Part shown: piece after piece, positions 8,712 through 60,321 of the stretch | Numbering within the stretch: the first letter of the stretch is position 1 | Layout of the letters: each line of letters begins with the position of its first letter | NCBI GenBank assembly: GCA_035548435.1 | Contig: DASZSY010000036.1 | Location: 1,262 to 65,261, forward strand | Length of the DNA: 64,000 nt | Direction: 5' to 3' | Source: Candidatus Nanoarchaeia archaeon | GTDB taxonomy: Archaea > Nanobdellota > Nanobdellia > Pacearchaeales > GW2011-AR1 | Notes under the pieces: model-generated | Seen by the model: only the letters and a program-made list of their open reading frames with translations | The model's database searches: none | What the model was told of the DNA's origin: nothing | Position numbers and translations under genes: made by a program

Positions 8712-8715
8712 TATA

Positions 8716-8734
8716 GTAACTTTTAAGGAGTTAC
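8716..8734 (+). promoter_or_regulatory. palindromic operator-like site GTAACT-N7-AGTTAC, immediately upstream of TATA (TTTAAATA at 8745-8752) of the 8774 gene
   Basis: GTAACTTTTAAGGAGTTAC, a perfect 6-bp inverted repeat; a near-identical site precedes the next gene. Confidence 0.5.
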
Positions 8735-8773
8735 AAAACAAATATTTAAATAGTGGACAAAATATTCTTACAT

Positions 8774-9514: not shown

Positions 9515-9533
9515 TTCTAAAGGGTTATTAGTG

Positions 9534-9552
9534 TAACTATGCAGGAGTTACA
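9534..9552 (+). promoter_or_regulatory. palindromic operator-like site GTAACT-N7-AGTTAC upstream of TATA (TTTAAAAG at about 9562-9570) of the Fic-like gene
   Basis: GTAACTATGCAGGAGTTAC followed by CAAA, same architecture and spacing as 8716-8734. Confidence 0.5.
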
Positions 9553-9591
9553 AATAGGAAGGTTTAAAAGGTTATAAGTTTTCAGTGAAAT

Positions 9592-19847: not shown

Positions 19848-19861
19848 ATAAGCTAATTTGA

Positions 19862-19920
19862 GGCGTTAGCCTCTATTTTTGTTTTTTTTAAATTCAAGGG
19901 CCGCTCGAAAGGGCGGCCTT
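19862..19920 (+). terminator. two GC-rich hairpins with an oligo-T tract downstream of ftsZ
   Basis: GAGGC-GTTA-GCCTC followed by a T-run, then GGCCGC-tcgaaagg-GCGGCC; unusually GC-rich for this genome. Confidence 0.4.
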
Positions 19921-22411: not shown

Positions 22412-22497
22412 CTTTAATCTTAAAGGAATAGGGGTTATTTAAATTCTATTCTCAGCTAAGGAGATAGCTTTTTATAAACAGGTTTCTTTAAAGTTGT

Positions 22498-25747: not shown

Positions 25748-25781
25748 GGAAGTACTAGTGAGTATAAAAATATAGAGAAAA

Positions 25782-25854
25782 CGTCCCCTGGAAGACTCGA
25801 ACTTCCGACCCCATGATTAACAGTCATGTGCTCTACCGGCTGAGCTAAGGGGAC
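25782..25854 (-). tRNA. tRNA-Asn (anticodon GTT)
   Basis: Reverse complement folds: acceptor GUCCCCU/AGGGGAC, anticodon stem CAUGA/UCAUG with loop CUGUUAA, T-stem GGAAG/CUUCC. Confidence 0.8.
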
Positions 25855-25875
25855 ATACTAAAGGCAAATAAAATT

Positions 25876-25943
25876 GTTATTTAAAAGTTCCTGTTTGGAA
25901 CTTTTAAGCCACAAAAATCTTTGATTTTTGATGTTTAAAGCTT
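25876..25943 (-). promoter_or_regulatory. conserved ~70-nt element, copy 1 (perfect palindrome AAAAGTTCC-N5-GGAACTTTT), carrying the TATA box TTTTAAATA about 25 nt upstream of tRNA-Asn
   Basis: Near-identical to 48396-48472; on the minus strand reads GGCTTAAAAGTTCC...GGAACTTTTAAATAAC. Confidence 0.5.
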
Positions 25944-25959
25944 ATTATCTAAAGAAATA

Positions 25960-26256
25960 TTACTTAAATTTGGTCATTTGCTCAGCATCTGAGAATGGGA
26001 ATGGTCTTATATTTGATACAAATGTTATATATCTTACAAACTTGTAAGCTTCAGTGTTCCACCATTCACAAAGTTCTGCCATTCCTTTATGTCTCTTATT
26101 CTTTATTAGAACGTAAATAAAGTTGGCAACTATTAAAACACGAACAAGAAGATTCCAAACCCCAAGAATTATACCTGAAACTATTGCAACTAGAATTCTG
26201 AAAAGCAATTCTTTTCTTTCACTAAATTTTTCCATAGATATATTTAATTTTTCCAT
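25960..26256 (-). CDS. small membrane protein (2 transmembrane helices)
   Basis: Hydrophobic helices ILVAIVSGIILGVWNLLV and VLIVANFIYVLI; two candidate ATG starts. Confidence 0.4.
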   Translation of the reverse strand: MEKLNISMEKFSERKELLFRILVAIVSGIILGVWNLLVRVLIVANFIYVLIKNKRHKGMAELCEWWNTEAYKFVRYITFVSNIRPFPFSDAEQMTKFK

Positions 26257-26458
26257 TATATAAACTTGTTCCTTTAATATAATTTATAAAAAATAATTTT
26301 TTTTCGAAATTTTTTTAGAAAAAACCGGATTTTTGTAATTTTCACAATTTTTTCTTGTCGTCGATAAAAATATTTTTAATTTTTTAATTTTCTGAAAAAA
26401 TTAATTTTTTTGGTAAAACTATATAAAGAAAAGATGTTTTAATAATAAAAGGAGAAAA

Positions 26459-26530
26459 ATGCCAGCAAAGAAAAAAGCATCTAGAAGAACTTCTGCAAAG
26501 AAATCTTCTAAGAAGAAAAAGAAAAGATAA
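26459..26530 (+). CDS. 23-aa ultra-basic mini-protein MPAKKKASRRTSAKKSSKKKKKR
   Basis: Ribosome-binding site AAAAGGAG 6 nt upstream of the ATG; followed by a T-rich terminator region; too short for the ORF track. Confidence 0.3.
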   Translation: MPAKKKASRRTSAKKSSKKKKKR

Positions 26531-26582
26531 TTTATTCTTTTCATATTAAAAATAAATATTTTATTTTTTTATTTTCTATTTT

Positions 26583-33059: not shown

Positions 33060-33143
33060 ATCTATTAGAGATTTTTCTTCTATTTATAGTTTCTCCTTAA
33101 CGGGAGAAATATAAGATAAATATGCCTTTTCTGTTACCACTGT

Positions 33144-36633: not shown

Positions 36634-36683
36634 ATTTTTCTCATGAAGAACAGGGTTAAAAAGCTGGCGGTTTTAGAGAATAT

Positions 36684-38040: not shown

Positions 38041-38072
38041 AATAATTATAGGATAGCAATCTATAAATATTC

Positions 38073-38420
38073 TTGTTTTTTCAGTGGAAGATGTTTGGCG
38101 GAGTAAATCCTAAGCAAGTGCAGGCCCTGATGAAACAAATGGGCTTAAAGCAAGAAGAGATAGAAGCAGACAGAGTTATTATTGAACAGGGAGACAAGAG
38201 AATTGTAATCGAGCCTGCAAATGTACAAAAGATTACTATGCAAGGTCAAACTAGCTGGCAAATTACTGGAGAAAGCAGAGAAGAAACAAAGGCCGTAGAA
38301 TTCTCAGCTGAAGATGTGGAGCTGGTAATGGAAAAGACTGGAAAATCAAAGAAAGAAGTGGAAAAAGTTTTGAAAGAAACAAAAGATATTGCTTCTGCTA
38401 TCGTGCAGCTAAGCGAATAA
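38073..38420 (+). CDS. nac: nascent polypeptide-associated complex protein (archaeal alpha-NAC)
   Basis: MFGGVNPKQVQALMKQMG N-terminus, NAC beta-barrel region, UBA-like C-terminus (IASAIVQLSE). Confidence 0.75.
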   Translation: MFFQWKMFGGVNPKQVQALMKQMGLKQEEIEADRVIIEQGDKRIVIEPANVQKITMQGQTSWQITGESREETKAVEFSAEDVELVMEKTGKSKKEVEKVLKETKDIASAIVQLSE

Positions 38421-47347: not shown

Positions 47348-47441
47348 TGGCCCCGACGGGATTTGAACCCGCGACACCTGGATTTCGCCAACCATGAAGG
47401 TTTAAGAGTCCAGTACTCTGACCGGGCTGAGCTACGAGGCC
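47348..47441 (-). tRNA. tRNA-Lys (anticodon CTT) with a roughly 19-nt intron at the canonical 37/38 position
   Basis: Reverse complement folds: acceptor GGCCUCG/CGGGGCC, D-stem GCUC/GAGU, anticodon stem CUGGA/UCCAG with the loop interrupted by an intron (AACCUUCAUGGUUGGCGAA), T-stem GCGGG/CCCGU; ends GGGGCCA. Confidence 0.7.
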
Positions 47442-48064: not shown

Positions 48065-48373
48065 TTATCTGTAAACTCTCCAAGTGTGTCTGCACTTTGT
48101 ACACTTGTAGAATTTTGTTTCTGATTCATCTGAAGCTCTTGTTTGAGTGGTCCAAAAGAATGCTTTCTTGTTTTCACACTTTGGACACTCTATCTGTACA
48201 ATCGGATAGGTATTTTGCTTATCTTCATCAATTACTGCAATGCTTTCTTTTGATTCAACTTTTTCAGTGGATTCTATTTTTATCTTCTTTTTTGGTTTAT
48301 AATTACAATTAGCACAAACGGCCTTTCCGTCTTGCAATATTAGTAAAGCTCCACAGCGATCGCAAAATTCCAT
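48065..48373 (-). CDS. tfs: transcription factor S / RNA polymerase subunit M (TFIIS-type zinc ribbon)
   Basis: N-terminal C4 ribbon (CDRCGALL ... CANC) and C-terminal TFIIS-type ribbon CPKCENKKAFFWTTQTRASDE...YKCTKCRHTWR. Confidence 0.8.
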   Translation of the reverse strand: MEFCDRCGALLILQDGKAVCANCNYKPKKKIKIESTEKVESKESIAVIDEDKQNTYPIVQIECPKCENKKAFFWTTQTRASDESETKFYKCTKCRHTWRVYR

Positions 48374-48395: not shown

Positions 48396-48472
48396 GTTAT
48401 TTAAAAGTTCCTATTGTTCTTTTTTTGAACTTTTAAGCCAAGAAAAGCTTTGCTTTTCTATGTTTAAACCTT
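48396..48472 (-). promoter_or_regulatory. conserved ~70-nt element, copy 2, carrying TATA TTTTAAATA about 30 nt upstream of tfs
   Basis: Roughly 85% identical to 25876-25943 outside a variable spacer; hairpin arms AAAAGTTC/GAACTTTT. Confidence 0.5.
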
Positions 48473-48519
48473 TAGTCTATATAGACTAAATGGTTATCAG
48501 AATTAGAATAATTCCGAGG

Positions 48520-48550
48520 AGTTCCTATTGTTCGTTTTTGAAGCTTTTAT
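48520..48550 (-). repeat. partial third copy (core about 30 nt) of the conserved element, overlapping the stop codon of the signal peptidase gene
   Basis: AGTTCCTATTGTTCgTTTTTGAAgCTTTTA versus AGTTCCTATTGTTCtTTTTTTGAACTTTTA at 48405-48434. Confidence 0.45.
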
Positions 48551-49107
48551 TTACAGAATCCACGTTCAGATGAGCTCTTGAAAGGCTCAAAGAATATTAA
48601 TTTCACCCATCCCAGAAGAGGTATTTTTCCTACGGCTTTGCCAAGTACTTTATTTCCACTTATAGATTTTTCAATATCTAACTGTTGAAGGTTGTTGTCT
48701 CCTTTCGTGTTTAAAGGAACTGTATCAATTACTCTATGGATTACAGGATATTTTGTCCCTGCTAGAAATATTATTACATCTCCCTGCTCTATTTTATCTG
48801 CACCCTTGACAAAAATAATATCTCCCTTTGTAAAACCGTTTTCTAGGGTAAACTTTCTAAAAGTTTCTTTACTTATTCCTTGATCTTCATACCAAAGTCC
48901 GTTTTGATTCCACCATCCTTCAAAGTTGGAATTGTGATGCATTGAACATGACTCAACTACTACAAGAGGAAGTGAAGTTCCAGTTATCCAGGATAGAGAA
49001 GGAAATAATATGAATTTTATAATTATAAATATCAAAACCAATGAAACTAGCCAGGATGAGAATGTGTCTTTTTTGAGAAATTCCCAGAATTTAGTTAAAT
49101 TATTCAT
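48547..49107 (-). CDS. signal peptidase I, archaeal Sec11-type
   Basis: N-terminal transmembrane helix, catalytic Ser region VVESCSMHH, and conserved His/Asp region (YPVIHRVID). Confidence 0.7.
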   Translation of the reverse strand: MNNLTKFWEFLKKDTFSSWLVSLVLIFIIIKFILFPSLSWITGTSLPLVVVESCSMHHNSNFEGWWNQNGLWYEDQGISKETFRKFTLENGFTKGDIIFVKGADKIEQGDVIIFLAGTKYPVIHRVIDTVPLNTKGDNNLQQLDIEKSISGNKVLGKAVGKIPLLGWVKLIFFEPFKSSSERGFCK

Positions 49108-60271: not shown

Positions 60272-60321
60272 TATTTTGATAACGGCGGCTGATTTTTAAA
60301 CTATAGTATGCTCTTGCTGCA

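Follow-up and report, generated by a model that had tools for sequence, protein, structure and literature searches.

Several kinds of promoter and of dispersed repeat come close, each in some respects, to the element that we describe here. Among archaeal core promoters, which join a B recognition element (BRE) to a TATA box, those of the tRNA genes of Nanoarchaeum equitans carry a box A of sequence TTTAAA 26 nucleotides (nt) before the transcription start (PMC3491384), and the symmetric TTTAAA boxes of Pyrococcus furiosus fire both ways (PMC6640164). [quoted passage not shown] In the halovirus HF2, AT-rich motifs in repeated intergenic modules of 29-58 bp act as promoters (PMC8707807). We have found two copies of a ~70-nt element in a 64,000-nt stretch of contig DASZSY010000036.1 of a Candidatus Nanoarchaeia archaeon (the whole stretch is referred to as the window, and coordinates are those of the window unless another locus is named). 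The element is a previously undescribed family of two-hairpin, three-TATA-box modules in the housekeeping promoters of DPANN archaea, tiny organisms that are mostly uncultured and of whose transcription control almost nothing is known. Searches of the literature for promoters of DPANN archaea, intergenic motifs of Woesearchaeota, MITEs at archaeal TATA boxes and bidirectional promoters brought up no description of it.

The two copies lie at 25876-25943 (copy 1) and 48396-48472 (copy 2), and a covariance model recognises them with 91.7 and 80.6 bits (E 8e-18 and 2e-15). A preliminary description had aligned these two stretches over about 70 nt, and the alignment is borne out, its exact blocks GTTATTTAAAAGTTCCT (17 nt) and GAACTTTTAAGCCA (14 nt), followed by ATGTTTAAA-n-CTT, being reproduced. 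Neither exact block recurs in the 64 kb at up to two mismatches, and three-mismatch matches occur at the chance rate. Each copy occupies a minus-strand intergenic interval, with one gene ending before it and another starting after it (a DUF4389 gene and then tRNA-Asn around copy 1, a gene of 186 amino acids (aa) and then tfs around copy 2). Read on the gene strand, the element runs AAnn-TTTAAA (Box3)-CAT-hairpin 2-TGGC-TTAAAAGTTnn-loop-nnAACT-TTTAAA (Box1)-TAAC and is followed after about 20 nt by the gene. The left arm of hairpin 1 in copy 1 consists of a BRE (BRE1, minus-strand AA at 25888-25889) and Box1, and the right arm of a mirrored BRE and Box2 (TTTAAG, 25903-25908). The parts of copy 1 and its neighbours are as follows.

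25876 to 25885, minus strand: Box1 TTTAAA (25880-25885) with TAAC, the predicted promoter P1 of tRNA-Asn, placed from the sequence and the general promoter register of -29 to -24; TTTAAATAAC is retained in relatives without the rest of the element.
25880 to 25908, no strand assigned: hairpin 1, arms 25880-25891 and 25897-25908, loop 25892-25896, from the fold; its inner pairs covary (GC, CG, UA, AU) over 49 copies, and its outer stem covaries in locus L099.
25908 to 25911, no strand assigned: linker GCCA (TGGC on the gene strand), which spoils Box2 as a TATA box and lies at the start site predicted for Box3.
25912 to 25930, no strand assigned: hairpin 2, CAAAAATC-TTT-GATTTTTG, with two-sided changes at 7 of its 8 pairs across the family.
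25931 to 25943, minus strand: conserved ATG, Box3 (TTTAAA, 25934-25939) and flank nnTT (gene-strand AA, 25942-25943), a second BRE/TATA unit directed toward the gene.
25781 to 25855, minus strand: tRNA-Asn, served by copy 1 (ARAGORN; Rfam tRNA, 70.9 bits), its 5' end 27 nt from AAAAGTT.
25960 to 26256, minus strand: the upstream co-directional gene, DUF4389 family (from the open reading frame (ORF) list and from Pfam on syntenic orthologues), its end 20 nt from Box3.

The 9-bp-arm palindrome that had been noticed in copy 1 is present and extends to a hairpin 1 of 12 pairs (25880-25891 with 25897-25908), beside which lies the 8-pair hairpin 2 inside 25912-25930. A check of hairpin folding had also been proposed, and in comparison with shuffled sequence the folding of both strands is better (z -3.0 to -4.5). 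The statement that the two copies differ only in the spacer inside the hairpin (5 versus 14 nt) was not accurate: the copies are only 84% alike, hairpin 2 also differs at three base pairs, each changed on both sides (C-G to A-T, A-T to G-C and T-A to G-C; 25912-25930 against 48441-48459), and hairpin 1 of copy 2 has a loop of 16 nt rather than 14 and one pair fewer than that of copy 1. Copy 2 and its surroundings comprise the following.

48396 to 48405, minus strand: Box1 (TTTAAA, 48400-48405) with TAAC, the predicted promoter P1 of tfs, from the promoter register; TTTAAATAAC (TTTAAATAAT in loci L137-L139) is retained at empty orthologous sites.
48400 to 48437, no strand assigned: hairpin 1, its arms (48400-48410 and 48427-48437) enclosing a loop of 16 nt (48411-48426); Box2 is at 48432-48437.
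48437 to 48459, no strand assigned: linker GCCA (48437-48440) and hairpin 2, AGAAAAGC-TTT-GCTTTTCT (48441-48459), from sequence and fold.
48460 to 48472, minus strand: ATG, Box3 (48463-48468) and nnTT flank (48471-48472), from the sequence.
48065 to 48373, minus strand: tfs (transcription factor S), served by copy 2 (ORF; Pfam Zn_ribbon_TFIIS), its start codon 29 nt from AAAAGTT.
48469 to 48520, minus strand: module Y, a pair of hairpins that includes the perfect palindrome TTTAGTCTATATAGACTAAA; its place in loci L140 and L133 is not upstream of the element but between element and TATA box.
48520 to 48549, minus strand: probable relic of an older hairpin 1 copy, on the gene strand AAAAGCTTC-AAAAACGAACAATA-GGAACT, a direct repeat of 48406-48435 that overlaps the stop codon of the upstream gene.
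48547 to 49107, minus strand: the upstream co-directional gene, 186 aa, no Pfam match (ORF, Pfam).

We note that the relic at 48520-48549 is a degenerate duplicate of the hairpin 1 of copy 2, unusual long loop included, and probably derives from an older copy of the element. Next to copy 1, the 326 nt upstream of the DUF4389 gene (26257-26582) form a very A/T-rich intergenic stretch with long runs of A and of T and no convincing ORF.

The element is not confined to the window. In species-representative genomes, a pattern for hairpin 1 in which GCC was required gave nine true matches, all in metagenome-assembled genomes of Woesearchaeota or Nanoarchaeota, and 9/9 continue into a second hairpin and ATG(T/G)TTAAA, neither of which the pattern demanded. 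A scan of metagenomes with a pattern anchored on the right half only, in which GCCA was required, gave about 60 more matches, all of which have the left arm TTTAAAAGTT, likewise not demanded. The conservation of the linker is partly built in, as GCC or GCCA was required by these patterns, and only its final A, present in the 9/9 archaeal matches of the first scan, is independent. Deduplication left 47 pattern-defined copies, and the covariance model gives 49 matches at E < 1e-8, with scores of 55-92 bits. The 49 copies, from Woesearchaeota/Pacearchaeota-type (Nanoarchaeota) genomes and from metagenomes, are spread over dozens of unrelated contigs and stand before more than 30 different genes, at loci with a G+C content of 27-42% among those checked. 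Several of the copies come from groundwater and sediment, the Hainich wells among the sampled sites. Restriction to two loci, which the preliminary description had named as the outcome that would speak against it, is thus not what was found. That the two window copies reflect chance similarity, or a recent local duplication private to this genome, might be suggested by their being the only two in the window and by the local partial duplicate beside copy 2; this explanation, which we give practically no weight, is excluded by the number and spread of the 49 copies and by E values down to 8e-18. No family in Rfam 15 matches at its gathering threshold except tRNAs, and none at E up to 10, the best sub-threshold scores being at most 17 bits against cut-offs of at least 40. 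Viral contigs contained no copy, and so lend no support to a viral origin.

It is very probable, judging from position and register, that Box1 is the working promoter of the downstream leaderless protein gene or tRNA. A gene start on the same strand adjoins Box1 in 46/46 copies with enough flank, and the distance from AAAAGTT to the start codon is exactly 26 nt in 29/47 copies and falls within 23-29 nt in 4 others; for three tRNAs the 5' end is 27-28 nt from AAAAGTT, shifted by 1-2 nt from the start-codon spacing. As a reference we used 174 element-free genes on the same contigs as the copies, whose general BRE/TATA profile has TTTAAA at -29 to -24 and A at -33 and -32. The nnAACT-TTTAAA-TAAC of the element matches this profile base for base, with the AA of nnAACT on -33 and -32, the two most A-rich BRE positions, and the opposite flank of Box1 is G/T-rich. 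The position also agrees with that of the box A of N. equitans tRNA genes. Nearly all genes of the window have leaderless TATA spacing, and transcription from Box1 should, on this register, start at or beside the start codon or the tRNA 5' end. The earlier proposal that TTTTAAATA, 25-30 nt before a gene, is a conserved promoter module with an extended upstream element agrees with the same-strand gene in every such copy, the 26-nt spacing and the BRE/TATA register. That the promoter is strong, as was also proposed, is inferred solely from the genes served (the tRNA-Ala/23S operon, tRNAs, ribosomal proteins and SerRS). Besides the tRNA-Ala/23S rRNA unit, these genes include tRNAs Asn and Val, L35Ae (on three contigs), S10, S17e, S6e, SerRS, GatE and eIF1A, together with TFS, the tRNA-splicing endonuclease (EndA), NDK, SMC and a 620-aa protein in five contigs.

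The two other TATA-like boxes differ in kind. Box3 has on its plus-strand flank nnTT, with T at frequencies of 0.87 and 0.70 at +3 and +4 in 47 copies, which reads AA-nn-TTTAAA on the gene strand, and it is a second canonical BRE/TATA unit in the same direction, about 53 nt upstream of Box1; its start is predicted from the spacing to fall on the G of the conserved TGGC. Box2 consists of a mirrored BRE and TTTAAG-CCA, spoiled where real promoters are most A-rich, and a start from it is predicted on the conserved ATG. This ATG is not a coding signal, as the mini-ORF that it opens (ATG TTT AAA) has a median length of 10 codons, with only MFK in common among the 47 copies.

We note several further promoter arrangements. 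In locus L061 the element (88-153) precedes tRNA-Ala (174-244) and then 23S rRNA (675-2144). In locus L053 an archaeal RNase P RNA gene lies directly upstream of the element (759-825), which precedes a tRNA (the two genes are at 668-738 and 1072-1395), so that at least this member of the group encodes RNase P RNA, though the tRNAs look leaderless. The spacers of three divergent gene pairs (36634-36683, 38041-38090 and 60272-60321) are each exactly 50 nt long and have one TATA-like box at their centre (e.g. GGTTAAAAAGC), and here one symmetric TATA box apparently serves two leaderless genes. At 33060-33143 and 22412-22497 divergent pairs have spacers of 84-86 nt with two TATA boxes and BRE-side palindromes (TTTCTCC-TTAACG-GGAGAAA; CTATTCTC...GAGATAG), a back-to-back geometry that is also that of hairpin 1. 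The consecutive intergenic regions 8712-8773 and 9515-9591 both contain a hairpin GTAACT-n7-AGTTAC, then AAA, and the TATA box of the next gene 6-11 nt on; this looks like a second small paralogous promoter-upstream module. Finally, two long tRNA calls, one of 94 nt at 47348-47441 (minus strand) and one of 98 nt at 1516-1613 of locus L142, have a four-base 'anticodon' and are probably intron-containing tRNAs. The latter is a tRNA-Asn orthologue (GTT anticodon region) with an intron and, as its TATA box is ~50 nt upstream, would have a 5' leader.

Both hairpins of the element are maintained while their sequences change. Of the pair cells in the alignment of 49 copies, 96.9% hold standard pairs, and 11/20 pairs show two-sided changes (76 cells); none of 500 shuffles reached the observed value on four of five measures, and pairing falls to ~60% when partners are slid by one column. 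For hairpin 2, 351/366 pair cells are Watson-Crick, and G.T and A.C are no commoner than other mismatches. Its arms differ widely, occurring as CAAAAATC/GATTTTTG, AGAAAAGC/GCTTTTCT, CGAGGAC/GTCCTCG and CAAGAATC/GATTCTTG, and it is flanked by GCCA and GATG, with one to three units in loci L072, L004 and L133. In hairpin 1 it is the two inner pairs that change (GC, CG, UA, AU) and, in L099, the outer stem too (AAAGATTGC/GCAATCTTT). Loops are occasionally mutual complements (TTT versus AAA), and lengths vary, from 6 to 18 nt for the inner segment of hairpin 1 (inner stem and loop) and from 18 to 29 nt for hairpin 2. An RNA of one strand accounts less well for the near-strict Watson-Crick pairing, the scarcity of wobbles and the loop flips than does a DNA-level palindrome or a need for hairpins on both strands, and we infer that the hairpins are of the former kind.

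It is improbable that the element instead specifies a structured RNA, whether the 5' leader of a longer transcript from Box3 (5'-GGCUUAAAAGUU..., with hairpin 1 at its 5' end) or a small non-coding RNA, with a role in stability, processing or translation. The strong covariation of both helices and the folding of both strands would be expected of such an RNA, the predicted Box3 start on TGGC lies just before hairpin 1, and A.C on the plus strand, equivalent to G.U on the gene strand, is seen 11 times against 4 for G.T, counts that are too few to decide the RNA strand. No single predicted transcript would hold both hairpins, however, unless it started inside the upstream gene; wobbles so nearly absent (15/366 non-Watson-Crick cells in hairpin 2) are unusual for RNA helices, no Rfam family matches, the same element stands before tRNAs, an rRNA operon and many unrelated proteins, and genes in these genomes are leaderless. 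Among specific RNA structures considered, the C/D box, the K-turn and the bulge-helix-bulge, judged by eye, do not fit the conserved bases, and a tRNA-like minihelix (a 12-bp stem with GCCA) would need a transcript starting inside the downstream gene.

The promoter and hairpin evidence could also be accounted for by a purely host-selected design without mobility, an explanation that we consider possible though on the whole unlikely. Here Box3 and Box1, ~53 nt apart, would be tandem promoters for highly expressed genes, combined with an insulator in which hairpin 2 (A5...T5) and hairpin 1 stop upstream read-in and divergent transcription, and TBP/TFB at Box2 and Box3 might be a roadblock. The genes served, such as the tRNA-Ala/23S operon, tRNAs, L35Ae, S10, S17e, S6e, SerRS, TFS and NDK, suit this design, as do the As at the BRE core of Box3 (87% and 70%, against 52% and 61% in ordinary promoters), the consistent weakening of Box2 to TTTAAG-CCA and the two-way firing of symmetric boxes in P. 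furiosus. Hairpin 2 has a T-run of at least 5 on both strands in 36/47 copies (4 in 6 copies, at most 3 in 5), and many copies have no more than 0-20 nt between Box3 and the end of the upstream co-directional gene, which makes hairpin 2 the first hairpin with a T-run past the stop codon; the element is moreover kept at orthologous loci despite diverged flanks. The design is harder to reconcile with the same promoters in relatives that do not have the element. The 5/47 copies with broken T-runs still pair (CGAGGAC...GTCCTCG; CAAGAATC...GATTCTTG), where a T-run terminator predicts the opposite, and hairpin 2 is kept in copies with a divergent upstream neighbour. Hairpin terminators are not enriched in the window (10 against 11.1 and 9 against 11.1 expected), and convergent genes abut, with 0-20 nt between them. 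Bidirectional termination of the upstream genes, one of the alternatives raised in the preliminary description, is accordingly possible and not specifically supported, given the paired copies with broken T-runs and the terminator counts. A general use of hairpin terminators in this genome was considered and rejected, since GC-rich hairpin terminators show no enrichment in the window. The sole classical terminator-like region of the window is at 19860-19920, with GAGGC-GTTA-GCCTC, TATTTTTGTTTTTTTT and then a 10-pair GC-rich hairpin, AGGGCCGCTC-GAAA-GGGCGGCCTT.

Comparison of orthologous loci shows where the element varies. The tfs loci were reached through TFS homologues, with the synteny 185-190-aa gene, tfs, response regulator; spacers are read on the gene strand, and identities are those of TFS.

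Window tfs locus, 100% identity, spacer of 173 nt: the probable hairpin 1 relic, then Y and a full element that adjoins the TATA box.
L132, 95% identity, spacer of 109 nt: one element abutting TTTAAATAAC.
L133, 82% identity, spacer of 200 nt: three hairpin-2 units, hairpin 1, Y, TATA box.
L140, 79% identity, spacer of 148 nt: element, 52-nt palindromic module Y, TTTAAATAAC.
L135, 77% identity, spacer of 40 nt: empty, TAG-ACAGCAAAT-TTTAAATAAC-21 nt-ATG.
L137, 74% identity, spacer of 38 nt: empty.

All compared tfs loci retain TTTAAATAAC or TTTAAATAAT ~21 nt before the ATG, whether or not the element is present. In L140 the inserted block is bracketed by a ~22-nt direct repeat, CCCAARGGGACTAAAGGTTTAAA, which ends in TTTAAA and the first copy of which forms the upstream gene's 3' end. 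For tRNA-Asn, the element is complete in the window; L141 (MnmA 81% identical) retains Box3 and Box1 and has lost or never had hairpin 2, TGGC and hairpin 1's 5' arm, and L143 (65%) has only GCAACT-TTTAAA-TAAC, without an upstream unit. Orthologues with and without the element also exist for the L35Ae, S10, SerRS, GatE, eIF1A and EndA promoters; for L35Ae, Box3 in the filled locus L005 is 11 nt from the upstream stop codon, and the TATA box of the empty locus L129 is 13 nt from it. L099 carries a tandem dimer whose units share a box, Box3 of one being Box1 of the following one, extra hairpins occur in L072 and L004, and orthologous copies may have unrelated hairpin 2 sequences (e.g. L030 versus L088). 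These comparisons of presence and absence span genomes at 65-95% protein identity. Taken together, the empty, partial, single and expanded sites indicate that the unit TTTAAA-CAT-hairpin2-TGGC-hairpin1-AACT behaves as an add-on, with gains, losses and duplications at a TATA box that does not itself move.

Module Y (52 nt, two hairpins) is found in the window (48469-48520), in L133 (5917-5968) and in L140 (~2913-2964), on a side of the element that varies, and its 3' hairpin is built from an inverted copy of sequence directly upstream of the TATA box. We considered whether Y is a second dispersed family and rejected this, as its blastn matches were at the tfs locus only, among the loci searched. 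At 5154-5241 of L045 (same contig as L006/L007) a diverged unit lies beside a canonical copy, with a hairpin-2-like stem, CGAGAAT-TGAAA-ATTCTCG, on the other side of hairpin 1; between the two units is an A4-stem-T5 hairpin, AAAATCTTC-TGAG-GAAGATTTT.

The variable spacing of these units bears on a further explanation, namely that the element is a transcription-factor operator or activating site for a translation and transcription regulon, with contacts at GCCA, GATG and TTTAAA. Its single-stranded-looking motifs are invariant, though mostly required by the collection patterns, and the gene set is rich in information-processing functions. The variation in length of both hairpins, and the extra hairpins in L072, L004 and L133, shift these motifs relative to each other and to the TATA box; in addition, the stems change sequence yet keep pairing, which a sequence-reading dimer does not require, and relatives have orthologous promoters without the element. 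We regard an operator as very unlikely.

The interpretation that we favour, tentatively and with somewhat less than an even chance of its being correct, is that the element is a dispersed, duplicative promoter cassette, REP/BIME- or MITE-like, that inserts or multiplies at the palindromic TTTAAA. A unit U, TTTAAA-CAT-hairpin2-TGGC-TTAAAAGTTnn-loop-nnAACT, would lie upstream of the working promoter arm nnAACT-TTTAAA-TAAC and would be added, lost or duplicated at the TTTAAA hexamer, leaving TTTAAA on both sides. The route could be a transposition-like insertion, or template switching or unequal recombination between TATA-like boxes, and only the orientation that gives the gene a good BRE would survive. 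The hairpins, as DNA-level palindromes, would be needed for propagation or produced by it, a role with which their strict Watson-Crick pairing, the loop flips and the module duplications fit; they may also shield the promoter from upstream read-in and from divergent transcription off the symmetric TATA box. The earlier suggestion of a MITE-like repeat that inserts at promoters holds as far as the empty, partial, filled and expanded orthologous sites are concerned, and fails as to terminal inverted repeats, which were not found. A more far-reaching version is possible at best: an archaeal mobile promoter that targets and duplicates the TTTAAA of leaderless genes, swaps in its own BRE and so rewires housekeeping expression across DPANN, spreading by a DNA-hairpin mechanism that might involve an enzyme or template switching nucleated at TTTAAA.

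A number of observations weigh against a cassette of this kind. The element has no terminal inverted repeats, as the two ends that the TTTAAA boxes enclose (AGTTnn... / ...TTTTGATG) do not repeat one another in inverted form and its palindromes are internal, and no transposase or other enzyme was linked to it, although no systematic enzyme search was made. TTTAAA does flank every copy, which answers the earlier call to look for target-site duplications only in part: the hexamers are invariant and indistinguishable from a functional TATA box, so that duplication is inseparable from function and unproven. All copies share one orientation and a promoter location, as a purely regulatory device would. 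The copy number is low (2 in 64 kb), and the mere 84% similarity of the window copies indicates no recent burst. At orthologous loci with diverged flanks the element is near-invariant (the 620-aa protein in 5 contigs, SerRS in 3, L35Ae in 3), which suggests selection in place or gene conversion, and ordinary promoters are less conserved at the BRE than is the corresponding flank of Box3. Empty sites could stem from deletion between Box3 and Box1 instead of representing the state before insertion, and no presence/absence polymorphism was seen, the sole other sample with the same TFS protein having an identical intergenic region. The duplicative cassette and the host-selected design are compatible if a spreading module was domesticated.

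Other signs of mobile DNA were sought in the collected copies. No long ORF follows the conserved ATG in 47 copies, and in no copy are the two halves split by a gene, as an autonomous partner might show. An integron attC site was considered and rejected, as the order of the GTT/AAC core is reversed and the copies stand at housekeeping promoters. We also note a DDE_Tnp_1 (IS4/IS5-type) transposase gene in L139 (2250-3338), 2 kb from an empty tfs promoter and with no evident link to the element.

The element provides a concrete promoter design for these archaea, with three BRE/TATA units and two hairpins before rRNA, tRNA, ribosomal-protein and other housekeeping genes in many genomes. If the unit does insert or duplicate at the TATA box, archaea would offer a clear example of the spread of promoters as mobile DNA, and palindromic core-promoter hexamers could be said to seed genome rearrangement. 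The covariance model can be used to mark the starts of transcription units in DPANN metagenome bins, and the element is a compact candidate promoter for genetic tools.

Set against the systems with which we began, the element is closest in its core to archaeal BRE/TATA promoters such as those of N. equitans and P. furiosus, sharing a TTTAAA Box1 that stands at the standard distance from the gene start and has its A-rich BRE two bases upstream, as well as the symmetric hexamer and mirrored BRE/TATA units. It is unlike them in embedding the promoter in a ~70-nt module with two covarying hairpins, a second, tandem TATA box and a spoiled mirrored one, and in the repetition of this module before many unrelated genes across many genomes. 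Like CREE, it is a small, non-coding, palindromic dispersed repeat that supplies a promoter and is present or absent at orthologous sites. CREE are bacterial and have 26-bp terminal inverted repeats, a TA target duplication and an IHF site, and they are RNase III substrates; the element, in contrast, is archaeal, bounded by TTTAAA rather than by terminal inverted repeats, and found in a single orientation and an exact TATA register. With REPs and REPINs it has in common short extragenic palindromes with conserved flanking bases, mosaic clusters of variable hairpin number, long persistence and concerted evolution. REPs mostly follow genes and carry no promoter, and the copy number of the element, 2 in the 64-kb window, is low by comparison. 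The HF2 repeats differ in being viral, in belonging to one genome and in not being reported as covarying two-hairpin structures, and the element was not found in viral contigs. The element, then, has the defining features of none of the known mobile families that could be tested here, and shares their behaviour.

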